The notes: generated by a model from the letters alone, not told the origin. DNA of 64,000 bases from Flavobacteriales bacterium (GCA_028280815.1 JANQLC010000007.1:15037-79036), one strand, 5' to 3'; shown: positions 4,636 through 63,875, counted from the stretch's first letter. Translations and numbers: made by a program.

Positions 4636-4965
4636 AATCCCCGCGCAGATCCGGCGCCGTATCGACTAAAGACCCAACACCCAAAAACTGCAATCGGATT
4701 GCAAAAAATGGCTGAGGGGTGAATCAAAAAGTGGAATGGGAAAATCACCGAGGGAAAAACGCGACAAATACACCGTGTCAAGGGCATGTAACCCTAGAAT
4801 AAATCCCAGAGAAGCGGAGAATCTTCAAACCGATACCCTATACCAGAAGACCCGATAAAAACAGCTGCCCCAAGCACAGCAGCTGTAAAAGCAAACCGGC
4901 TGAGAAAGACCGGGTTCTGATTTAAATCCATACCTTTACAAAAAACTTTAAAGTCCCTTTAAAAT

Positions 4966-6934: not shown

Positions 6935-6965
6935 CCCTTTCCAGTCATAGCAAGCTAAGAAAGGG
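6935..6965 (-). terminator. Weak intrinsic-terminator-like hairpin oriented for leftward (minus-strand) transcription
   Basis: CCCTTTC (6935-6941) pairs with GAAAGGG (6959-6965) across a 17-nt loop. On the minus strand the stem is followed by a U-run (complement of the A-run at 6929-6934). Confidence 0.3.
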
Positions 6966-7044
6966 GTTCCACGCTACCAGCCCTGTATGGATTGCGACAA
7001 TTTATAGGCGACATCGTCCCAATGCCAGCCTTTCTTATATCGAG

Positions 7045-7742
7045 CCGAGAAAAGTAAGCCCCGCTTTCAAATCGTCAAACGGAAATAAAAAAGGAATACC
7101 CATCTATAAAACCAACTCAAAAGGACAAAGACAAAGGATAAGCCTTTCAGACCGCCAACCGGAAACAAAGAATAAATCTCCTTTTTAAAGCATCATATGA
7201 GATAAAAAACCAATACCTGCCTTTCAGGCTGAGCTGCAGGATTAAATGCGAAAAAATACGACACCCCCTTTCGATCATCCCGTAGAGATAAAGGCCAAAG
7301 AAACAATTCCGCGCTTCTTAACCCGCCATGCACAGCAAAAAGCAAGCCCTTTTCCAAATCGATTTGCCGCCCTTGTAGCCATCACCCAAGATACTGTAAA
7401 ATATGCCCGAAGTAACTGCGCGACAAGGCTACCACAGCCTCAGACAAAACCAAAGAAATGTAGTCCCCCTTTCCCAATCAACAACCGAGAGCGAGAGGTG
7501 AGAAAAATGAGAGTCAAGCTGTAAACCCTCACAAAGGCGCAAAAGCAAGAGCACAAGGCTGAATTTGCAGCATGAACCTTAGAAACGACAAAAAATACGG
7601 TATGCGTTTAGACTCATTCCATAGAGATAAAACGAAGAAACAAGGCTTTTAAGTGATCTCACACAGCACAAACATAAAGAATGAGGCCAAGGCATCCAGA
7701 CTGATCCCAGTTTTCGTCTCTGAGCCCCATGCCGTACCGCAG
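7045..7742. repeat. Intergenic array of degenerate ~40-45-bp units (A-run / GC core / T-run / YAGACC tail), A+C-rich on the + strand
   Basis: Example units: CAAAGGATAAGCCTTTCAGACCGCCAACCGG (7132-7162) and AAACAAAGAATAAATCTCCTTTTT (7163-7186). It belongs to the same family as 24996-25480 and 56060-56510. There is no credible ORF. Confidence 0.6.
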
Positions 7743-7926
7743 TGCAGCTAAGGGTAAAGCGGGCCTAGCAAACCCAATCCTCAGATAAGCACTACCCTGT
7801 CCGAGGCCGATATGAAAAAAGCCCATACGCTACATGCAGCTAAGGGTAAAGAAGGGACATCAAATCCGACGTTCAGATAGGCACTACCCGACCCGACCTC
7901 AAATGATGTACCCCGCCGCGTATGGC
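7743..7926. repeat. Two tandem copies of a 92-bp segment; the right copy contains the 3' end of the carbonic anhydrase gene
   Basis: TGCAGCTAAGGGTAAAG starts both copies (7743 and 7835). The stop triplet TCA recurs at 7781 and 7873. The remnant reads ..SDRVVLI*, against the real C-terminus ..SGRVVPI*. Confidence 0.75.
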
Positions 7927-8502
7927 TATTTCGGCGTTTTGTTCCATCTCAGCCAATATGGGACTCTTGTCGCGGATGCGATCGATGGTCTGGTGTACGT
8001 GGTTCTCGACCACTGCGGCTACATAGGCCGCATTTTTCGCGTTTCGCGCATAGCCTTTTGTATCTGCTATCGCGGGTTCTATGTCACGCAAAAGACCCGT
8101 TATATGGCCCAGGGCTAGGCGATCGATCGCCGATTTTACCGCACCGCAATCCGTATGGCCCAAAACCAATAGCAGTGGGCTTCGCGCTACTCGGCAAGCG
8201 TACTCCAAACTGCCCAAAGCACAACTGTCCACAACGTGGCCAGCTACGCGAACCGCGAATACATCGCCGATACCCTGGTCAAAAATCAGCTCCACGGGTA
8301 CGCGGGAATCGATGCAAGCTAGGATTACGGCTTTGGGATATTGCCCGTCGGCACTGGATTCGGCTTGCTTTACATAGTCGCGCTGAATCATTTTTCGGCT
8401 TACAAAACGCGCATTGCCCACCATTAAATCCCGCAGTGCGGCATCGGGGGTCATGTCCGATTGCTGCTGTTTATCCATCACATGGGAAAGCCGTGTATCC
8501 AT
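7873..8502 (-). CDS. Beta-class carbonic anhydrase
   Basis: 209 aa. The zinc-ligand motifs CIDSRV and GHTDCGAV are typical of beta-CA. Confidence 0.85.
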   Translation of the reverse strand: MDTRLSHVMDKQQQSDMTPDAALRDLMVGNARFVSRKMIQRDYVKQAESSADGQYPKAVILACIDSRVPVELIFDQGIGDVFAVRVAGHVVDSCALGSLEYACRVARSPLLLVLGHTDCGAVKSAIDRLALGHITGLLRDIEPAIADTKGYARNAKNAAYVAAVVENHVHQTIDRIRDKSPILAEMEQNAEIAIRGGVHHLRSGRVVPI

Positions 8503-9481: not shown

Positions 9482-9555
9482 TGGAGGCGCCGAGCGGATT
9501 CGAACCGCTGTAGGCGGTTTTGCAGACCACTGCCTAGCCACTCGGCCACGGCGCC
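9482..9555 (-). tRNA. tRNA-Cys (anticodon GCA), CCA encoded
   Basis: The reverse complement folds as a cloverleaf. Acceptor stem is GGCGCCG/CGGCGCC. The anticodon stem is 5 bp with loop CTGCAAA. The T arm is AGCGG-TTCGAAT-CCGCT, followed by discriminator T and CCA. Confidence 0.9.
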
Positions 9556-9949: not shown

Positions 9950-10419
9950 GGATACATTTTATCGAGTCCGCTATCGGTCGAACAAAAATACATCGAATTG
10001 AAAAACGCTGGGGGAAGTAAAGTGGGGCCGAGTGACCCATAAAGGGCAAGACGGCTCCTTACCCATCGATTACAGCTCAGTCATCATTTCCCAAGGCAGA
10101 TACAATCCTTTCTACAGCGCCTCGCAACAACCCTGCCGATAAACAAAAGGCTTCTGATCGATCAAGCTGAAAAAATAACAGCCTTGAAAAAGAGCCGCTT
10201 TAGGCCAAAAGCCGGGGTGGTTAATGATCAGTTCCCAATCGAAAAATACCCTTTGGACATCCAAAACAAAATGCCAAGTAGGGAGACAAGCCTACAGCGG
10301 CGTAACCGATGCGATTTCCACCGGGCCGATCGACTGAAGTTAGCGAAGTGTGGCCCCTGGCCCAAACCACCCCACAGGTATCGCTTTTTCCTTAGATTTG
10401 TCTCCTTTGGCTAAAACCT

Positions 10420-12108: not shown

Positions 12109-12269
12109 GCGCCTTGGGAGAGGTTTGGCTGTGGTTTAAGGCGGATGTAAGATTGGGCAACAGACCGATTCCCTAGAAATAGAACGCTGTACCACACAAG
12201 CGCGGGCTGCTTAAGGAGGCTGAGGTGGAGGAGATGTATTCGAATCGGTTTTGAGAGATGGGATGGTGG

Positions 12270-12420
12270 CCTTTTTTGTATTCGCCTGCGCATGGCATGT
12301 GAAGAAAGGGCGTTATTTTTTTGTGCTCAACCTTTTGGCGTGGTTAAGAAAAGAGGCCTATCTTTTGGATTTGCCCTATATGTGGCGTTTTGAAAAGCCA
12401 GCCTTATTCTTTTGCGTTTA
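12270..12420. repeat. Copies of the intergenic unit in G+T orientation
   Basis: GAAAGGGCGTTATTTTTTTG (12304-12323), AAGAAAAGAGGCCTATCTTTTGG (12346-12368) and GAAAAGCCAGCCTTATTCTTTTG (12392-12414). Confidence 0.5.
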
Positions 12421-12545
12421 TCACTGCTGTGCTTCAATGTAGCTCAGTGCCGATGGCGTTTGGTGTACTTAGGCGTTGGCGTGGATTGTAAAAAATGGGA
12501 GGATCGATTGGGATTTTCGCAGCATCTAATATGGGGTAGGTCTAA

Positions 12546-24940: not shown

Positions 24941-24995
24941 AGCGCTTCGATGGCCGAGGAGGTTGTCAGCGGTTGCCGAAGTTATTGAAACGGGG

Positions 24996-25480
24996 GAACG
25001 AAAAATAAAGCCGGTCTTCAGGCCGTCAAAGGAGAAAAATAACGCCTCTTTTTTAAATCCCCACGGACAAATGCAAAAGAATAAGGGCGGATTTTCACAA
25101 CAACCCCATAGGAGCAAAAGGCAAGCCTCCTTTTTTAGACCACCGACCGGGAAAAAACAACGCTCCCTTTTTTGATGAACTACAACGGGGAATACAGTGC
25201 GACGAGTACCTTTTTTAACCACTGCCCAGGATCGAACACCAAAGGATAAAGCCGATTTTTTGACGGCCACATACGTAAAAACCCGAGAGAAACAAGTCTC
25301 CTTTTCAAAACGACAAACAGGGAAAAATAAGGCTGGACTTTTGGCAAAGGCGGAGAAATGATATCTGTCTTTCAAACCGGCTCACACGAGATGAAAACAA
25401 AAGAGCCATTCCGGCTTTTCAGACCGTCTCTATATGGAAGTACAAGGGGATAAGCGCAGCTTTCAGATTCCCTCATCTCA
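24996..25480. repeat. Array of ~12 degenerate ~40-bp units (A-run / GC core / T-run / variable tail), A+C-rich on the + strand
   Basis: Unit cores lie at 25001-25020, 25034-25054, 25075-25095, 25116-25136, 25152-25173, 25241-25261, 25322-25342 and 25413-25430. There is no conserved exact repeat and no credible ORF. Confidence 0.65.
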
Positions 25481-25489
25481 AATAGGGGT

Positions 25490-42647: not shown

Positions 42648-43946
42648 ATGGCAGAAGTGATTAGAATGCCCCGCCTGAGCGACACGATGGAAGAAGGCGT
42701 ATTGATCCAATGGCATAAGCGGGTGGGCGACCCGGTTGAAGCGGGTGATATATTGGCCGAAATCGAGACGGATAAAGCCGTTCAGGAGTTTGAATCCTTT
42801 TATGACGGGACGCTGCTCTACGTGGGCTTGAAGGAGGGGGAACGCGCGCCCGTAGATGCTGTTTTGGCGATTATTGGCGAGGCGGATGAAGATGTTAAAG
42901 TGCTTATCGCTAAGGGTGAAGATGCCAGTTCAGCTGCTGGAGCGGCGAGCGATGGGTCTGCTTCCAAAGAGGCGAACGATGGGACTGTTTCCAAACAGAT
43001 GGCTGAAGAGAAAGCGGTGAAACCCGTAGCGGCTGCTGGAGAGGCGGCCGATGGGACTGTTTCCAAACAGCTTGAAGAAAAAGCGGGGCAGTCCGTTACC
43101 CATCGAATTTTGGCTTCCCCGCTGGCGAAAAAGCTGGCCCGAGAAAGCGGGATTGACTTGCGTCAGGTACGGGGGACTGGCGACAACGGCAGGATCGTAA
43201 AAAGCGATGTGGAGGGATTTGAACCCCCGATTCGGCAAACGCCGGAGGCGCGTATTCCCCAGTCGGCTGAATCGGCGGAAATCCCCGTATCCCAGCTGCG
43301 AAAAACCATCGCTGAGCGCCTGACTGAGTCGAAGTCTACGGCGCCGCATTACTACCTGAGTGTAACGGTCGATATGGAAAACGCCTGGATCTCGCGCAAA
43401 CGGATCAATGCCATGCCCAATGTTGCGATCTCCTTCAACGATATGATCACCAAAGCCACGGCTATGGCCTTGCGCCGGCATCCCGAGGTAAACAGCAGCT
43501 GGGCAGGTGATAAGATCATCCAACACGCCGATATCCATATCGGCATGGCCGTGGCAGTAGAAGCGGGCTTGTTGGTACCGGTCATTAAACATGCAGATCA
43601 CAAGGGCATGATTCAAATTTCGGCTGAGGCGGAAGACTTGGCCGAGAAGGCCAGAAGGCGTAAAATTGCCGCAGCTGAAATGGCCGACAGTACCTTTACC
43701 GTCTCCAACCTCGGCATGTTCGGTATCGAATCCTTTACATCGATTATCAACCAGCCGAACGCTTGTATTTTGTCGGTGGGCGCTATCGCTGAGAAGCCCT
43801 TAGTCAGAGACGGTCAAATTGCGGTGGGACACATCCTGCAGTTGACCCTGGCTTGCGACCACCGCACGGTGGATGGTGCTACGGGCGCGGCTTTTCTGCA
43901 AACGCTGAAGTCCATGCTGGAAACCCCTTGGGCGATGCTGATGTAA
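42648..43946 (+). CDS. pdhC: Dihydrolipoamide acetyltransferase (E2) of the pyruvate dehydrogenase complex
   Basis: 432 aa. It has a lipoyl domain (EIETDKA), an E3/E1-binding domain (ASPLAKKLARESGIDL) and the catalytic motif DHRTVDG. Confidence 0.9.
   Translation: MAEVIRMPRLSDTMEEGVLIQWHKRVGDPVEAGDILAEIETDKAVQEFESFYDGTLLYVGLKEGERAPVDAVLAIIGEADEDVKVLIAKGEDASSAAGAASDGSASKEANDGTVSKQMAEEKAVKPVAAAGEAADGTVSKQLEEKAGQSVTHRILASPLAKKLARESGIDLRQVRGTGDNGRIVKSDVEGFEPPIRQTPEARIPQSAESAEIPVSQLRKTIAERLTESKSTAPHYYLSVTVDMENAWISRKRINAMPNVAISFNDMITKATAMALRRHPEVNSSWAGDKIIQHADIHIGMAVAVEAGLLVPVIKHADHKGMIQISAEAEDLAEKARRRKIAAAEMADSTFTVSNLGMFGIESFTSIINQPNACILSVGAIAEKPLVRDGQIAVGHILQLTLACDHRTVDGATGAAFLQTLKSMLETPWAMLM
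42951..43070 (+). repeat. In-frame tandem repeat inside the E2 linker (DGSASKE / DGTVSKQ / DGTVSKQ)
   Basis: The perfect 21-nt repeat GATGGGACTGTTTCCAAACAG lies at 42978-42998 and 43050-43070, 72 bp apart. A degenerate copy lies at 42951-42971. Confidence 0.8.
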
Positions 43947-44284: not shown

Positions 44285-44310
44285 GGGCCTCGCTTAGCGA
44301 GGCTTTTTTT
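44285..44310 (+). terminator. Rho-independent terminator of the csp gene
   Basis: GCCTCGC (44287-44293), a TTA loop and GCGAGGC (44297-44303), followed by T7 (44304-44310). Confidence 0.65.
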
Positions 44311-46140
44311 GTCCTTGCCCCCTTGTGCAGGCTTGAGCGCTCGGTCTCGTTTTCTCAGCCTTGGGTTTTTTACGTTTGTCTCTCATTCAATTGGCTTGGG
44401 GGATTTGGGGTGCTTGCACGGATGCATTATTGCGTTGGTTGGCGGTGACGTGGCTGGGTTGAGTTGCTGCGTTGGCGGTTGGTTAGCTGTGCTGGCTTGA
44501 ATGGGGTTGATCGGGTTGCGCTGTTGGGTTATTAAGTTGGTTTTTTGACGCTGTTGGTGTGCTTGGGTTGCTTTCTCGGCTTTGTCTTTTTGTGCGCGCT
44601 TCAAGGCTTGGGCCTGCTCTCCAATGCTGTTTGGCAGTTGAAAAGGAACTGTTTTTTCCGCTGGGCTGATCGGCTTTGTCGTGTATTTGTCTCGGCAGGC
44701 CTTTTTACCGTGATCGGTGGGGCAGCAGCTGTAATGCGCTGATTTGAGGGGCGTCCCCGTTTTTTGGTGCCCTCTCTTTGTGGCGGTTAAAAAGAGGGGT
44801 TTGTCCTTTTAAGCTCCGTCTTCTCGCGATCGTTGGAAAGCGGAAATTGCTTTTTGTTTTGGCTTTGCGTGTGTGGGTTCTCAGCGGGTTTGGGCTGCTT
44901 GGGTAGCGGTTGCTTCGACGACTGAGTAGGGCTGGATCGTCGAATGGGTTGGAGCGGTTGGTCTGTCCAGTGAATTGGCTTGTCGCTGTGATGGATTGAG
45001 TGCGTGGATGGATTGGGACTACTCGATTGATTCAGTGAGCTGCTGCGTGGGCCTGTGGGTTGGATTGAGCAGCTCGGATGGGTTTGTCCTTCGTCGAGCG
45101 CCTTGCATGGGATCTTTCTACAGTTGATGTAGGTGGCTTTTGGACTGCGTTGTTTTCCCCCTTCCTTATGCCGGGTTTTTTGCATTTGTCTTTTCTGTGA
45201 TGGGCGTATGCGGGTTTGTCGGTTGGGGGCTGTCATTCCGCTGCGTTTGCATAGGAGGTGCTTTGGTATTGTTCCTGTCGGGATTTTGCATTTGTCTTTT
45301 CTGCGATGGGTGTAAGTGGCTTTTGGGCTTCTCGTTTTTTGTCCCTTGTCCCCATTCGGGCTTTTCGCATGGTTTCGTACAATTTGTGTAGGCAGATTTT
45401 GGTTTCCCTGGCTTGGATTGGGTGCGCGGATGGGTTGGTGGGTTCAGTGAGTCGGTTTGTCGTTGTGGTTGATTGGGCGGGTGAAGGGGTTGACTTATTC
45501 AGTGGGTTGGATTGTTTGAGCTGCTTGGTTTGGTGGGTTGTTGTGATGGGTTCATCGGTGCATGGGTTTGGAAAAGGCGGTTTCTCTTTTGGTCTTTCCC
45601 TTTTGTGACTGTTTGGGATGCTGCACGTATTTCCCCCTTCTCGTTTGAGTTGGTTTGAAATCGCAAAAGCACGACTGTGTCCTCACCATTGAATGGGGGT
45701 TGAAAAAGTGGACGTTGTTTTTTATTTTGTCTTGTGTGGTGTCTTGAGAAGAGGGTGTGACTCTTTTGTCTCTGCCTTGCATGAGACATCTGATCCCTTA
45801 TTCTTTTGTCCTTGTTATCGATCACCAATTTAAAGGAGGAGGAGGTTTGTTTTTATCTCTCGGAGCGGGCCAAAGCTCATGAGCGTTTTTGTCTTTGCCT
45901 CTATGAGACCGTTTGAAAGCGCTGTTTTGTCTTTTGGTGTTCATCGTTGAGACCTTGAAAGGTAGGAGTTATCCTTTGCTTTTGTCCTTTTTTGGGGTGA
46001 GAAGAGCTGTTTTTCTGCGCTCGTCCTTTGTTGGTACTCATCCTGTCTCGCAGTTTAAAAAGCGCGTGCTATCCTTTGTTTTTATCCTTTTTGAGTCGGC
46101 GATCGGCTTTTCGCTCGTCTGGAGTCGACATCTCAGGCGA
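44311..46140. repeat. 1.8-kb gene-free, G+T-skewed tract of nested degenerate repeats
   Basis: TTTGTC occurs 18 times on the + strand, and I saw no GACAAA on the + strand. Near-identical ~37-nt copies lie at 45172-45208 and 45278-45314. There are three GGNTTG-rich blocks. Reverse-complement copies of the ~40-bp unit lie at 45880-46100. Confidence 0.7.
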
Positions 46141-54733: not shown

Positions 54734-55825
54734 CTACAAATTTTTGGAGATGTACTGGACGATTCGAAATTCGGAGAAAAACTCCTTTAAAATCACTTTG
54801 AAAGCGGTGTAAGCGGGGATGGCGATGATCATTCCGAAGACGCCAAAAAGCGTCCCACTGATTAAAATGACCAGAAAGATCTCCAAGGGGTGTGATTTGA
54901 CGCTGCTGGCGTAAATCAAGGGCTGGCTGACAAAATTATCGAATAATTGCGCCAGGGAATAACCGCTCAAGATGTAGAGGGCTGTGGGAAGCGCATCGCT
55001 CATGAAGTTTTCCCCGATCCGGCTAGAGAGCGCCAATAGGGTCATCAGAATCCCCCCGATAAAGGGCCCCAGGTAGGGGATTATATTGAGCAGTGCAGCG
55101 AGGAAAGCGATGACCACGGCATTGGGGATTTCAAATAGCAATAGGATCAGGGTGTAAAATACGAATAGGATGCTGAGCTGTAGGAAAAGACCCAGAAAAT
55201 ATCGGGAGAGCAGGCGGTGTATTTCGGTAAAAACCCGCTTCACGCGGGGTGTGTATTTCTGGGGGAGGATTGCGTAGATCGGATCGCTCATGTTTTTGTC
55301 ATCCCGCATAAAGAAAAAAGATATGAACAGCACCGAAAGCAGGCCTAGGGTAAAATTTCCTATGGCACCGAACAGCGGATTTAGGAGCTCGGGTATGATT
55401 TGCAGGTTTTTGGAGTCGAAGAGCCCGTAATCCGTTAAACCGCTCAAAATGTGAATGTGGTATTGAGATAGAAATGCATCCCACTCATCCAACCACTCGT
55501 CAACCTGCAGCTGAAATTCCTGTATGTTGAGCAGAGAGAGGTTTTGCGCCTGACTCGATATGAGTGGAACGAGCAGACTTACCACTGTAGATACCACCGT
55601 TACAAAGATGAATAGGGTCAGGATCACGCTGATGACATTTGGGATTTTGAGCCGCTCCAAAAGCCTGACCAGCCTAGAACCGATGAGGGATACCACCGCT
55701 GCGATGGCTACGTAGGCGATGACTACGCGGATCGCATAGAGAAGCCAAACGGATATACAGGCGAAGAGGGTGAGCGCGCAGGCTTGTAAAATGCCCTTCG
55801 CCGTCTCATTGGGCTTCCACTTCAT
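54734..55825 (-). CDS. AI-2E family transporter (PerM-like permease)
   Basis: 363 aa with about 8 TM helices. The conserved C-terminal region is NIIPYLGPFIGG. Confidence 0.8.
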   Translation of the reverse strand: MKWKPNETAKGILQACALTLFACISVWLLYAIRVVIAYVAIAAVVSLIGSRLVRLLERLKIPNVISVILTLFIFVTVVSTVVSLLVPLISSQAQNLSLLNIQEFQLQVDEWLDEWDAFLSQYHIHILSGLTDYGLFDSKNLQIIPELLNPLFGAIGNFTLGLLSVLFISFFFMRDDKNMSDPIYAILPQKYTPRVKRVFTEIHRLLSRYFLGLFLQLSILFVFYTLILLLFEIPNAVVIAFLAALLNIIPYLGPFIGGILMTLLALSSRIGENFMSDALPTALYILSGYSLAQLFDNFVSQPLIYASSVKSHPLEIFLVILISGTLFGVFGMIIAIPAYTAFKVILKEFFSEFRIVQYISKNL

Positions 55826-56059
55826 AGCACAAAGATAAGAAAATGGGGTTCGCCCATCAGGTGCTCGGTGTCGCGTTGGTAGAAAGGTACAAAAAATGAC
55901 GTTCGTATGGTGAATGGCATCAATTTTTTTGCACTGTTGGTAAAAGTGGTGGGAAAAAGACCGTTATATCCTATCGATAACCAGCTTGTCTGCTGTTCTT
56001 CTTCCCCTGGTTGCGAAGCCTGAGCGAATCGCTTCAGCCGTTGAATCCATCTCAGGAAG

Positions 56060-56510
56060 AAGGCTTTGTCTATTCAGGCTAAAACAAAGGGTCAAAAGTG
56101 AAAAAAATAGGTCAAATTTTAAGTTGACCCTTAGAGGCGAGCGCCAAAAATAGGCTCCCCTTTTTCAAGTGTCAACCGGAGGTAAAAGCGTAAGACCAAC
56201 TTCTAAACCCGCACGAGAGGACAGAGACAAAGAATGGGGTTGGGTCTTAGCCGTTCCATGGATCAAAGAAATGAGTTTCTCTCTTTAAAATGTCAAATAG
56301 GAGTCAAAAAACACCCCCTTTTTTCAAACTGTCGAACTGGACGAAAGCGTAAAGGCTGGCTTTTAGACCGCAACCGGGGAGGAGATACAATCCGAAAGAC
56401 GAGACGTCCTTTGTTGCGCACCTGGCTTGCTTCTCGTTTTTATCAACTTCAGAGCGTTTTTCAAGCGCTTGAAAGGATACCCTTTTGCCTTTGTCAATCC
56501 GAGTGCTTGA
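56060..56510. repeat. Intergenic array of the ~40-bp unit family, A+C-rich on the + strand
   Basis: Units include GCCAAAAATAGGCTCCCCTTTTTCAAGTGTCAACCGG (starts 56144), AAAAAACACCCCCTTTTTTCAAACTGTCGAACTGG and TAAAGGCTGGCTTTTAGACCGCAACCGGGG (56350-56379). Confidence 0.6.
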
Positions 56511-56540
56511 GAAAAAGTAAGGCTGACCTTTCGGCCAGCC
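56511..56540 (-). terminator. Intrinsic terminator of the TonB-dependent receptor gene
   Basis: GGCTGACC (56521-56528), a TTTC loop and GGCCAGCC (56533-56540). On the minus strand the hairpin is followed by TTACTTTTTC. It lies 29 nt past the stop. Confidence 0.5.
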
Positions 56541-56568
56541 TTTGGTGTTTTAAAAAATGGAATCGCAC

Positions 56569-58968
56569 TTATCCATTGAGCTGGAACGGCACGATCAGTT
56601 TGAATGAGATGTTTCTTCCCATTTGATAGATGCCGGTTTGGCCGGTTGCTGGATTTTCACCTATGTATTTCAGCCGGCTCATATGGTCCTGGTAGGCTTT
56701 GTCAAATAGGTTGTCGCCGATCACGTAAAGACGTGCCAAGCTGTTTCCGCTTTTGTTCTTAAGTGTACAGCCCACACTCGCGTTGAATAAGGTGTAGTCC
56801 GGTGTCGCGCTTTCCGTATCGTAGCGCGTGTAGACGTGGTCTTGTTTAAAGCTGTAATCTATACCCCAGGCTAAAAATACAGACTGGAACAGGGTTTTGG
56901 GTTTAAACACCGCCTTTATTTTAGAGTGCAGTGCTGGTGCGGGTATGAAGGGCAGGTATTTTGACGCTTTGCTCGCGTAGTCCTGGAATTCTCCATTGAC
57001 AAAGGAAAAGTCGTTGTGCCAATGCAACCAGGACAGCTCTTTTGGGTGTACCTCAAAGCTGGCTTCGGCGCCCCAAAGCTGTGCGTCTTGCTGTTCGTAT
57101 TCGAACAATTCCGCACCTTCTATCATTCTCGCTTGGGCGTCCTTATGAATGTAAATGTAGTCGGCTATGGCATTGTAGAATCCCGATAGGCTAAGCGTCA
57201 GCGCATCGTTATTCCAGATCAAACCCAGGTCGAGCTCCGTATCAGTTTCTGGGTCTAGGTTTCGATTTCCCAATTCATAGCGATTGGTGCCTTCGTGAAT
57301 CCCATTTGCGGAGAGTTCCTGTGAGTTGGGTGCTCTAAAGCCGCGTGCTGCATTGAACTTCACAGTTAGGTAGTCGTCGATCAGATAGCTGAGCCCCAGG
57401 CTGGGGCTCAGATTCGAGAAATCCGCTTTGAAGGCGTTAAAGCCGGGTTTGATGCCGCCTTGAGCGGGTTCGTTCACTTGTAAGGCCTTGCTGTTTATAT
57501 GGCGTAGATCAAATCGAAGCCCGCCAGCTAAATTCCATTTGTCGTTGATGGTTTTGCTCACATAGCTGTAGCCGCCGAAGTCGAATAAATCGTAATTGGG
57601 GATTAGGAATTCCTCACCCTCGTTTTCATTGGTTTGATACATGCCATTGGTCCCGACTGTGATTTTCCAACCGCCGATAGGGCTCAGCTGGTATCGCGCA
57701 CCGTAGTCGTAGGTTCGCAGTAGCAGGTCCAGGGCTGCCCCGCTTTCCTCTGTCTCTGCTTCCGCCGCATTTGCCCCCTCCGTTTCCTCGGGTTCCGGCC
57801 CTTCAAACTCCTGTCTTTTGTTCTGTTGGTAAGCCAGATCGAGTTGCAGCCGATCGGAGCCGAGAAATAGGTCTTGTCGGAGTTGCACGCGATAATGCTT
57901 AATTCTTTGGTAGGGTAGATCGATGGTATAACTATCCAACTCCCTTTGTGATACGGCTCGAACCTTTCCCGCCTCGAATTTGGTAAAGGCTCCTGATTCG
58001 TTCCGCTCCCCTTCAGTCATGCCGAGTTTTTGACCAAATGAACTGAAGAACAGCTGCGTATTGCCCCAGTTGTAATCCCAATCCAGATCACCGGAGAATT
58101 CGAGGTTTTCAAATCCAGAATTGTAGACGGTGCCATCCTTATCATTTTTGTAATTACCGGCTTGCTTGCGGTCTAAATCGATGTGCCAAGAAAGGGCGTC
58201 GAGCTTTCCGGCGTTGCTCAAGCCGTATTCCTGCATGTCGTTGTTGGCCTGGTATTGCGATTGTAAATGCCCATTTACCGCTCCGTCTTTCAGCTGTTTT
58301 TCGGTGATGAAGTTGATCACACTGCCCTGGGCATCCGAGCCGTATAGCAAACTGCTGGGTCCCTTGATAACCTCTGTGCGCTGTATGCCGAGCTCCCCGA
58401 TCTGGATGCCGTGTTCGGCGCCCCACTGTTGTTCCTCTTGCCGCACCCCGTTGTATAGGGTTACCACGTGGTTGCTTCCCAGCCCGCGAATGACGGGTTT
58501 GGAGATAGAGGGCCCGGTTTGCCAGGCGTCGACGCCGGGTATTTGGGTGATGGCATCGACGATATTGGAACTGGCCTGCGCCTCCATGTCCGCCGCGTGA
58601 ATGACGGATGTGCTTATGGGTGAACGGCGCTGGTCGGTGGAATGGGTAACGCCGGTCACGATGACCTCATCCAACTCGCCATACTGCTCGCTCAAGTGGA
58701 TGGTATAGTTTGACTGGTCTTCTCTGAAAGAGACGCACTTCGGCTGATAACCCACACGATTGACGACAAAGGTGAATTGCCCCTTTGGGATTTGCATTGA
58801 AAATTTTCCACTTGCGTTCGTTGCGGTTCCCTTGTGGAGGGCTTCGCTGTATAGATTGGCCTCGGAAAGCGGATTTCCCGAAACATCGGTGACCGTTCCG
58901 GATATCTCGTGTTGTGCCATAAGACTAACGCTCGCCAGAAAGGCGAGACATGTGATTGATTTTTTCAT
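56569..58968 (-). CDS. TonB-dependent outer-membrane receptor with an N-terminal carboxypeptidase-regulatory-like domain
   Basis: 799 aa. It has a signal peptide, an ISGTVTD..G.PL..A.. CarbopepD_reg pattern, a plug region (VIRGLGSN..) and a long barrel. Confidence 0.88.
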   Translation of the reverse strand: MKKSITCLAFLASVSLMAQHEISGTVTDVSGNPLSEANLYSEALHKGTATNASGKFSMQIPKGQFTFVVNRVGYQPKCVSFREDQSNYTIHLSEQYGELDEVIVTGVTHSTDQRRSPISTSVIHAADMEAQASSNIVDAITQIPGVDAWQTGPSISKPVIRGLGSNHVVTLYNGVRQEEQQWGAEHGIQIGELGIQRTEVIKGPSSLLYGSDAQGSVINFITEKQLKDGAVNGHLQSQYQANNDMQEYGLSNAGKLDALSWHIDLDRKQAGNYKNDKDGTVYNSGFENLEFSGDLDWDYNWGNTQLFFSSFGQKLGMTEGERNESGAFTKFEAGKVRAVSQRELDSYTIDLPYQRIKHYRVQLRQDLFLGSDRLQLDLAYQQNKRQEFEGPEPEETEGANAAEAETEESGAALDLLLRTYDYGARYQLSPIGGWKITVGTNGMYQTNENEGEEFLIPNYDLFDFGGYSYVSKTINDKWNLAGGLRFDLRHINSKALQVNEPAQGGIKPGFNAFKADFSNLSPSLGLSYLIDDYLTVKFNAARGFRAPNSQELSANGIHEGTNRYELGNRNLDPETDTELDLGLIWNNDALTLSLSGFYNAIADYIYIHKDAQARMIEGAELFEYEQQDAQLWGAEASFEVHPKELSWLHWHNDFSFVNGEFQDYASKASKYLPFIPAPALHSKIKAVFKPKTLFQSVFLAWGIDYSFKQDHVYTRYDTESATPDYTLFNASVGCTLKNKSGNSLARLYVIGDNLFDKAYQDHMSRLKYIGENPATGQTGIYQMGRNISFKLIVPFQLNG

Positions 58969-59707
58969 AATATTGGATGGTTTTGTAAGTGATAGATCGA
59001 TTTTGTTTTCGCGGTATTAAATCGAGGGAGGAGGCGCCTTGTTGGGGTTATTTGTCCAGCATAGCGCGAGGCGTGTACGCTGTGGTTTTAAGTCGGTGCA
59101 TTTTGCTCGGATTGCTGCGAAGTATGGCCGGGCGCAAGAAAATGCGAGCCGCTGTCGGATTCAGGGTTGCTATGCCGTGTTGAATCAGGCAAACCACACA
59201 GGGTCTGCCAACCGATTTCCCTTGAGAACCGTGCTTGTGCGATGTGACAAAATCCTGAAAAAGCCTGAGCGAAAACAGGCTGGACAAACCGATTTGGACT
59301 CCTTTTTTCACCTGTTTCGTCCTTTTCATGCGACAAAGGTAAAGGTTTGAAAATACCTCACAAGGAATTTTGTCGCAGGGCTGCCTTTCCGTTACAGGCG
59401 GTTTGGAATTTGGTTCCCATTGCGGCTTTTCGCCTTTTTATCCGCGCTGCGGTTGCTATTTTTAGTCTGCTTTCCCCGTGTTTTTGGGTTGGAAGGGCTT
59501 TGCCCCTTTTCTACTCGTCTTTGCACAGGGTATAGGCTGGTGGCTTGTAAGGGCTGTAAGCCCGTCGTTCGCCTTTTTCTCGTGATTGTATTCTAGCGCA
59601 TTTGACCACAGCTGTCCCCCCATCAACTCAATTGATGCGATGAGTAGGCCTGAAAAGGCGGATAGTTTGTATTTTCGTGGGCTGGAAAGAGAGATGAGCC
59701 CTAGCTT

Positions 59708-63684: not shown

Positions 63685-63875
63685 CATTTCTCTTCGCAGG
63701 GTGGCGAGCGGTTTATCCGAATAAGGCTTGTGATGGGGATGGGTTTCAGTGGTCAGGTCCCAATCCCAAGGCTTTTCTGAGGCGGTTTGAAAATGGAGGC
63801 TTAGGCTTTGTTCGCGTGCTGGGTTTCAGTGACCAAACTCCAATCACCGTCGTCAATCTCCTCAATTTTTCCGCC

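Follow-up and report, generated by a model that had tools for sequence, protein, structure and literature searches.

Bacterial genomes are normally compact, and the dispersed repeats known from them are palindromic (repetitive extragenic palindromes, REP), derived from transposons (miniature inverted-repeat transposable elements, MITEs) or near-identical tandem copies (variable-number tandem repeats, VNTR). Here we describe a family of degenerate, strand-asymmetric repeats, organized in arrays, that fits none of these classes. The family was studied in 64,000 nt of DNA from a Flavobacteriales bacterium (GCA_028280815.1 JANQLC010000007.1:15037-79036; hereafter the window), where one of its arrays, array D, lies in the 743-nt spacer (55826-56568) between two minus-strand genes, one for a TonB-dependent receptor (56569-58968) and one for a transporter of the AI-2E family (54734-55825).

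Several described systems resemble these arrays in part. Mycobacterial interspersed repetitive units (MIRU) are near-identical within a locus and vary in number between strains (PMC3635867). The arrays share with MIRU/VNTR loci the head-to-tail arrangement of 40-100-bp units at dispersed intergenic sites, the gain and loss of units and the lack of a transposase. Unlike MIRU copies, however, the units described here are ~50-60% alike, and no change in their number is seen between two close strains; the arrays also reach 1.8 kb and make up ~6-8% of the sequence. In addition, MIRUs are oriented with their flanking genes and carry small overlapping open reading frames (ORFs), neither of which holds for these arrays. 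The REP, BIME and REPIN repeats with their associated RAYT (Y1) transposases are short (20-40 bp), extragenic and very abundant (PMC3116915, PMC3337134, PMC3733652). They resemble the present family in their abundance, their enrichment at gene 3' ends and convergent junctions, their occasional clustering and their lineage-specific families, and roles in supercoiling, IHF binding and mRNA stability have been proposed for them. REPs are imperfect palindromes that form hairpins, switch orientation from copy to copy in BIMEs and are tied to a RAYT gene, whereas the units described here are not palindromic, lie head to tail and are strongly strand-asymmetric. One end of a REP is also marked by a conserved tetranucleotide, GTAG or CGTC (PMC3733652), and neither tag is present in the unit profile or in the consensus of the hidden Markov model (HMM) derived below.

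The MITEs (Correia/NEMIS, RUP, BOX) are likewise non-coding, dispersed, intergenic and divided into sub-families, but at roughly 80-500 bp they are several times larger than our unit, which lies in tandem arrays and lacks terminal inverted repeats. Eukaryotic satellites and minisatellites offer a closer parallel, with degenerate tandem units, a library of variants spread across arrays and species, turnover faster than point substitution and accumulation where insertions are tolerated; the present arrays differ in that they lie on a bacterial chromosome, measure at most ~2 kb and sit between closely spaced genes. Finally, the CsrB/RsmZ sponge RNAs and rut sites share short purine motifs (GGA, AGGAG), an unstructured, G-poor context and an excess of C over G. 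The arrays differ from them in having no consistent orientation, and A-runs, T-runs and a 44-nt period are foreign to these RNAs; CsrA is not known in Flavobacteriia. Of all these systems, MIRU-type minisatellites and the satellite DNA of eukaryotes come closest to the arrays in behaviour. A literature search on intergenic tandem repeats of Flavobacteria returned nothing relevant.

The clade sequence examined amounts to ~106 kb from metagenome assemblies, namely the window and two loci of a related species, L034 and L040 (together 42 kb). A profile of the unit was built by anchoring on T-runs, and a profile HMM of the unit was iterated, with 80 kb of other Flavobacteriia loci and reversed decoys as the control set. 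Read on the A/C-rich strand, the unit is ~44 nt long and consists, in order, of an A-run, a C-rich core, T3-6, CA(A/G)AC, a C-rich tail and a purine block. In the T-run-anchored profile the A-run spans ~10 nt (-16 to -7 of the T-run, ~70% A, often with a terminal ATAA) and the C-rich core ~5 nt (-5 to -1); T3-6 is followed by C/A-A-A-n-C and by a tail whose variants include CCGCCAACCGG and CCGTCAAACGG, and the purine block (GGA, GGAG) at +14 to +17 leads into the next A-run. The iterated HMM consensus is AAAAAAAAAACCCCCTTTTCAAACCGTCAAAC. Base autocorrelation gives a period of 38-47 nt with a peak at 44-45, and the spacing of T-runs has its mode at 40-49 nt, with multiples. A weak sub-period of 13-14 nt is present in the C signal; phasing at 10.5 nt, a sign of curvature or wrapping, was looked for by autocorrelation and is absent. 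The A/C-rich strand contains C at 0.27 and G at 0.19, and the head-to-tail joining of units produces strand-asymmetric arrays of 0.1-1.8 kb.

The information per position in the unit profile is very low, and the exact patterns that we tried were too degenerate to recover even the known arrays. The divergence of the units is too great for Tandem Repeats Finder, which reported no array in the spacers that hold repeats. The (A+C)-(G+T) skew was rejected as an objective array detector; it is unspecific, and coding regions pass the threshold as well.

An initial annotation of the window had pointed to a ~20-mer shared by three unlinked spacers and had read it as evidence of common descent rather than mere composition. 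The three strings stand where they were reported (CCTTTCAGACCGCCAACCGG at 7143-7162, CCTTTTTTAGACCACCGACCGG at 25129-25150 and GCTTTTAGACCGCAACCGG at 56359-56377), as do the further copies at 25413-25430 and 7132-7153 and, in reverse complement, at 45905-45922 and 45949-45978; three related tails quoted from the 56-kb spacer are also present, ~2 nt to the left of the position implied. The ~20-mer proves to be one part of the periodic ~44-nt unit, in arrays of up to 1.8 kb, and the AGACCGCCAACCGG group that had been picked out is one sub-family. A search with a 19-mer at up to three mismatches gives four matches against 0.21 expected, a circular count in that the pattern was built from three of them. 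Broader comparisons agree: different spacers have 108 12-mers in common, compared with 13.4 in shuffles, and 39 14-mers, compared with 1.6. The unit HMM finds 41 matches in the 106 kb of window, L034 and L040 against three in the 80 kb of other Flavobacteriia and two in the reversed decoys, an enrichment of ~15-20 times over controls and decoys. In the 20 nt after the T-run, 26 cross-array pairs agree at 11 or more of 14 positions, against 4.0 +/- 2.0 after column shuffling (a count of 26 was reached in 0 of 200 trials), and there are three mutually similar triples of unit tails against 0.01 in column shuffles.

This excess of pairs and triples indicates that the units form sub-families spanning loci and species; examples such as CAGACCGCCAACCGG and CAAAYCGKCAAACGG are common to several loci and to both species. 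Common descent is therefore upheld by k-mer sharing, HMM enrichment and the pair and triple excess, and the further suggestion of a proliferating or duplicating family with a conserved core agrees with the sub-families and with the multi-unit blocks common to arrays of one genome described below. These comparisons show what appear to be copies duplicated and spread between loci.

The arrays of the window are listed in Table 1. The clear arrays and one solo unit cover ~6% of it, or ~8% if three doubtful A/C-skewed spacers are added, and the genes adjoining arrays are ordinary housekeeping genes. From the signals placed here, the units of array D lie between the terminator of the upstream gene and the promoter of the next. 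Arrays occupy four of ~8 convergent gene junctions, and such spacers are uninformative on orientation because either direction is sense to one of the two genes. Among co-directional spacers, the A/C-rich strand is sense to the upstream gene in two (window 4636-4900, a doubtful member, and L040 9651-10000) and antisense in two that are orthologous to each other (array D and L040 3400-4020). With the co-directional cases split 2 to 2, the orientation of the arrays relative to transcription is not fixed, and a rule by which the A/C-rich strand would in every case be sense to the upstream gene was rejected.

The same family is present in the related species (84% amino-acid identity) at L034 11438-12279 and at L040 3400-4020, 9651-10000 and 19362-20200, and two of the L040 arrays occupy positions orthologous to arrays D and C. 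No units were found in relatives at 72-78% protein identity (L036, L037, L042 and L045), in which the spacers are short, and the family is absent from the other Flavobacteriia loci examined; it therefore arose, or expanded, in a narrow lineage, after the relatives at 72-78% had branched off. Ordinary orthologous spacers of the window and L040 align at 72% identity over 160-270 nt (E 1e-19 to 1e-31), whereas array C (1831 nt) and its L040 counterpart (829 nt) have only one 51-nt match, and array D gives no alignment with L040 3420-4254. Since ordinary spacers align and orthologous arrays do not, the arrays change faster than neutral substitution, which rules out a static selected sequence. A scenario of an ancient burst followed by neutral decay was also rejected: neutral divergence is ~0.38 substitutions per site (four-fold degenerate sites 70% identical, n = 1208), at which ordinary spacers can still be aligned and arrays cannot. 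Both the narrow lineage restriction and the turnover faster than neutral sites had escaped the initial annotation.

Material common to different arrays is visible directly in L040, where two arrays that lie 16 kb apart on opposite strands have two blocks in common, one of 87 nt (90% identity) and one of 172 nt (76%). These shared blocks cover several units and have ragged ends with no duplicated flank visible, the unit boundaries being degenerate. In the window, array C contains an internal 40-nt duplicate at 88%, the array at 12109-12545 and array B have a 36-nt match at 83%, and the spacer between the TonB receptor gene and gyrA holds ~300-420 A/C-rich nt more than its L040 counterpart. The 87-nt block (L040 3690-3760 and 19612-19690) does not itself resemble a unit; GGCACTGCGCTGCC and CCCCAGGGG elements occur in it, and it may represent a small element of its own within the arrays.

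Both synteny breakpoints seen against the relatives coincide with arrays. At cca (window 24941-25489; L034 11438-12279), the neighbouring gene is dnaK in the window, whereas L034 has the gene of a LysR-type regulator there; in the array-free L036, L037 and L045, cca is followed by a tRNA gene. At array D, the window lacks an operon for fatty-acid beta-oxidation (FadB-like, thiolase and acyl-CoA dehydrogenase genes) that separates the TonB receptor and AI-2E genes in the relatives, and the 743-nt spacer with the array is all that is left between these two genes. The operon is present in L040 (3356-10000) and in L042 (1889-10000), where it also carries a MarR gene and the gene of a 566-aa protein.

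Table 1. Arrays, doubtful members and flanking signals in the window, in map order (MFE, minimum free energy).
Feature	Position	Strand	Context and content
A/C-skewed spacer, membership doubtful	4636-4900	+	After gldN; no clear units, no HMM match
Array A	6973-7700	+	~12-15 units; 9 HMM matches; includes the 7143-7162 copy; convergent spacer, AhpC/TSA-domain gene versus carbonic anhydrase gene
A/C-skewed spacer, membership doubtful	10050-10390	+	Upstream of the GlnRS promoter (-7 box 10393-10400); no clear units
Array (no letter)	12109-12545	-	Convergent spacer, GlnRS gene versus NifU-like gene
Array B	24990-25489	+	~11-12 units; 8 HMM matches; includes the 25129-25150 and 25413-25430 copies; convergent spacer, dnaK versus CCA-adding enzyme gene
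Array C	44310-46140	-	1.8 kb; includes the reverse-complement copies 45905-45922 and 45949-45978; flanked by the cold-shock gene terminator (44285-44305) and a DUF4258-like gene downstream of ald
AI-2E transporter -7 box TATCTTTG	55830-55837	-	Promoter region beyond the left hairpin
Array D, main part	56060-56400	+	~6-8 head-to-tail units; antisense to both flanking genes; includes the 56359-56377 copy
Second hairpin, then T7	56109-56130	-	MFE -8.2 kcal/mol, z = -2.9; left bound of array D
Array D, HMM matches	56141-56182, 56264-56303, 56300-56341, 56340-56374	+	
Array D, inverted part	56400-56510	-	Two or three units, A/C-rich on the minus strand
Head-to-head junction TTTCAAGC / GCTTGAAA	~56460-56475		Within the inverted part of array D
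TonB receptor gene terminator	56519-56542	-	Canonical hairpin and T-run: 10-bp stem, 6 G-C pairs, tail ACTTTTTCTC; conserved in L040; right bound of array D
A/C-skewed insert, membership doubtful	59240-59660	-	TonB-receptor/gyrA divergent spacer; absent from the L040 ortholog
Solo unit GCCTAAGCCTCCATTTTCAAACCGCC	63779-63813	-	Short convergent spacer, ~60 nt past the thiolase gene stop

We propose that the arrays are a lineage-specific, non-coding, minisatellite-like repeat family with fast turnover, of which the 56-kb spacer holds one array, and we put the probability of this reading at roughly 0.45. The arrays would grow, shrink and trade material as single units and multi-unit blocks are copied within and between them; this would probably happen where long A-runs and T-runs allow slippage or template switching, or else by ectopic recombination, with no dedicated transposase involved. 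We infer that the arrays have no function of their own and would persist where gaps tolerate insertions, that is after terminators, before promoters and at convergent junctions, accumulating in DNA that is probably not transcribed. Transcription of the arrays as structured RNAs is improbable, and so is their use as promoters or terminators. Their effect would probably be mainly genomic, in the form of inflated spacers and dispersed homology at rearrangement breakpoints.

A number of observations weigh against this proposal. Adjacent units are no more alike than distant ones (n = 20 adjacent pairs), where simple local slippage predicts otherwise; on average, likeness does not depend on whether two units are neighbours, belong to one array, or come from different arrays or different species, and shuffled units are clearly less alike. 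Strains L040 and L041, which are 99.93% identical, show no unit-sized insertion or deletion, and no copies above 95% identity were seen, so that current activity is not demonstrated. In spite of turnover, both species retain the consensus, the period and the strand asymmetry, and functional selection would give the same outcome. The persistence of ~6-8% of non-functional DNA is also unusual in a free-living bacterium. With the clade sample limited to the ~106 kb of metagenome assemblies on which it rests, our claim is a modest one.

Of the alternatives, the one that survives best, although we regard it as unlikely, is that the arrays are functional DNA. They would be strand-polar platforms, with a period of ~44 bp or about four turns of the helix, on which a protein is loaded that is nucleoid-associated, insulates or handles topology. 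The candidates would be gyrase or a protein of the IHF/HU kind, both suggested for REP/BIME elements, or else Rho, and the platforms would insulate neighbouring transcription units from one another. Selection would then keep the consensus while single copies are replaced, and the family would be a bacterial counterpart of functional satellite DNA. The features retained in both species in spite of unalignable orthologous arrays are consistent with such a role, as is the lack of a fixed orientation to genes, which a role at the DNA level predicts. Two array positions are common to both species, and the arrays lie at convergent junctions and beside genes of often highly expressed kinds (dnaK, cold-shock, TonB receptor; judged by kind only). 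The missing 10.5-bp phasing and the very low information per position argue against a platform, as do array lengths that vary between orthologous positions (1831 versus 829 nt) and arrays that can be present or absent. The units contain no palindrome and no site of fixed spacing, no candidate binding protein was identified, and the sister lineages do without arrays altogether.

A role at the RNA level is distinctly less probable. In this reading Rho, at rut-like loading sites, or another factor that binds single-stranded RNA would use the unstructured, G-poor A/C-rich strand as a platform, and read-through or antisense transcription would be blocked in one direction. The excess of C over G on this strand, the absence of secondary structure and the weak 13-14-nt sub-period of C would suit this role, and at convergent spacers two of the genes that read the G/T-rich strand have hairpin terminators of their own. 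The orientation data offer it little, since the convergent spacers are uninformative and the co-directional arrays are sense in two cases and antisense in two that are mutual orthologs; array D in particular lies behind a strong terminator and is antisense. The foreignness of T-runs, A-runs and a 44-nt period to rut sites also speaks against it.

It is improbable that the units are a miniature transposable element or its footprints or ends, a REP/RAYT-like system included. The dispersal of copies over many loci, the sub-families common across loci, the existence of a solo unit and the copying of blocks between arrays on opposite strands would all be expected of such an element. The initial annotation had raised a MITE as a possibility, with terminal inverted repeats and target-site duplications as its signs, and this idea is not supported. 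No inverted repeats of at least 14 nt within 400 nt occur in arrays A, B and C, and none flank the arrays as terminal repeats at the scale of the window; array D has two weak inverted-repeat pairs, each involving a flanking terminator region. There is no palindromic hairpin, and the unit, at ~44 nt, is far below MITE size and lies head to tail and not scattered singly. The blocks shared between arrays are multi-unit and ragged, with no target-site duplication visible. No transposase or RAYT gene is present in the 64-kb window or among the called genes of the 42 kb of L034 and L040. The repeat family is therefore very probably not a MITE. Phage and plasmid collections gave no match to the arrays, and a test for CRISPR found no near-identical repeats with unique spacers, in keeping with the blank Tandem Repeats Finder result and the low likeness of the units.

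That the units are decayed bidirectional intrinsic terminators, multiplied by duplication, appears equally improbable. The order of A-run, GC core and T-run does mimic a bidirectional terminator; the core AAGGCTGG(C), found at 56353-56362, 25330-25337 and ~12396-12405 (minus strand), equals the left arm of the TonB receptor terminator hairpin, and one core (25404-25418) is a 4-bp mini-hairpin. Most cores, however, are 5-8-nt C-rich runs unable to pair, and the conserved CA(A/G)AC, tail and purine block have no counterparts in terminators. Neither strand of the arrays folds better than shuffles (z = -0.19 and +1.33), the local MFE of the units averages -2 kcal/mol, and no covariation in support of pairing within units was found. 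Purine block and C-rich core, and likewise A-run and T-run, are no more complementary to their own partners than to permuted ones. The inverted repeats of the form AAAGG-N5-CCTTT to which the initial annotation drew attention are indeed present in the copies concerned, but by the partner-permutation test they are not a property of the family; because complementarity within units does not exceed that of permuted partners, the hairpins are incidental. Its reading of them as hairpins or relics of bidirectional terminators is not supported, with folding no better than in shuffles and no partner-specific complementarity. In a direct test for intrinsic terminators the units have a T-run but lack a stem, and the true terminators at 56519-56542 and 44285-44305 differ from them.

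Scans for other signals gave a similar picture. At the gathering score, an Rfam scan found only a tRNA (9485-9555), with no array match up to E = 5. The Bacteroidetes sigma-A promoter (TTTG at -33, 17-23 nt, TAnnTTTG at -7) has six full matches in the window and none in the arrays; TAnnTTTG boxes sit before genes, with three of 48 in arrays. Arrays of Bacteroidetes -33/-7 promoters on the G/T-rich strand were accordingly rejected. Counts from sigma-70 and terminator scans equal those of shuffles; the lone sigma-70-like match, TTGACA-17-TATTTT, lies at 56147-56175 on the minus strand.

Chance similarity of A/C-rich low-complexity sequence, for which one could cite the low information per position and the finding that column shuffles can also produce a single pair agreeing at 12 of 14 positions (69 of 200), is scarcely credible in view of the k-mer sharing, the HMM enrichment, the pair and triple excess, the defined period and the presence of the same family in an independent assembly of another species.

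The host is an uncultured Flavobacteriales bacterium: the window carries an LpxC-FabZ fusion, gldN, a TonB receptor with a CarboxypepD_reg domain and TAnnTTTG boxes before genes. Its CCA-adding enzyme is ~65% identical to those of named Flavobacteriaceae, and closer relatives, at 84%, 78% and 75%, are known from metagenomes only. A scan of a genome collection with the AI-2E transporter found no close relative, a look-up with EF-P gave no match, and look-ups with SucD and the TPR protein returned the source organism only. Across eight orthologous genes of the window and L040, 84% protein identity against 70% identity at four-fold degenerate sites means that amino-acid change is rather high relative to synonymous change, given that these are housekeeping genes; this may reflect relaxed selection in the lineage.

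Further features were observed in and around the arrays. A 149-aa ORF (44787-45236, minus strand) lies wholly inside array C; its low-complexity product is rich in Q, K, P, T and S and has no Pfam match, and the ORF is very probably a spurious call. Gene callers place small ORFs in the array-bearing spacers of the relatives as well. Around the solo unit, in the spacer between the TPR-protein and thiolase genes (63740-63829, minus strand), the 12-mer CACTGAAACCCA occurs twice, 78 nt apart. Beyond array A, a 62-nt direct repeat (7743-7804 and 7835-7896) has copies 76% identical at a distance of 92 nt. Because the second copy extends into the 3' end of the carbonic anhydrase gene (7873-8502, minus strand), the first looks like the remnant in the spacer of a duplication of that gene end. 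Two hairpins, 6935-6966 and 4861-4886, are preceded by an A-run on the plus strand and hence followed by a T-run only on the minus strand. They would be minus-strand terminators, yet they lie just downstream of the plus-strand AhpC/TSA-domain gene and gldN, at the edges of A/C-rich spacers.

Elsewhere in the window, the sole TAnnTTTG box upstream of the TonB receptor gene (TACCTTTG, 59334-59341, minus strand) is 366 nt before the start codon, and the stretch from box to start (58969-59341, minus strand) is 72% conserved in L040, which suggests that this gene may have a long conserved 5' leader. Within the 2-oxoacid dehydrogenase E2 gene, positions 42941-43079 hold tandem copies of 27-40 nt with 73-88% identity, probably in the part that encodes its flexible linker.

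If the arrays are merely tolerated, they would be a clear bacterial case of satellite-like DNA dynamics, and in these metagenome-assembled genomes they would give rise to spurious ORF calls and to breakpoints of rearrangement. If they are functional, they would point to a novel DNA or RNA recognition system.

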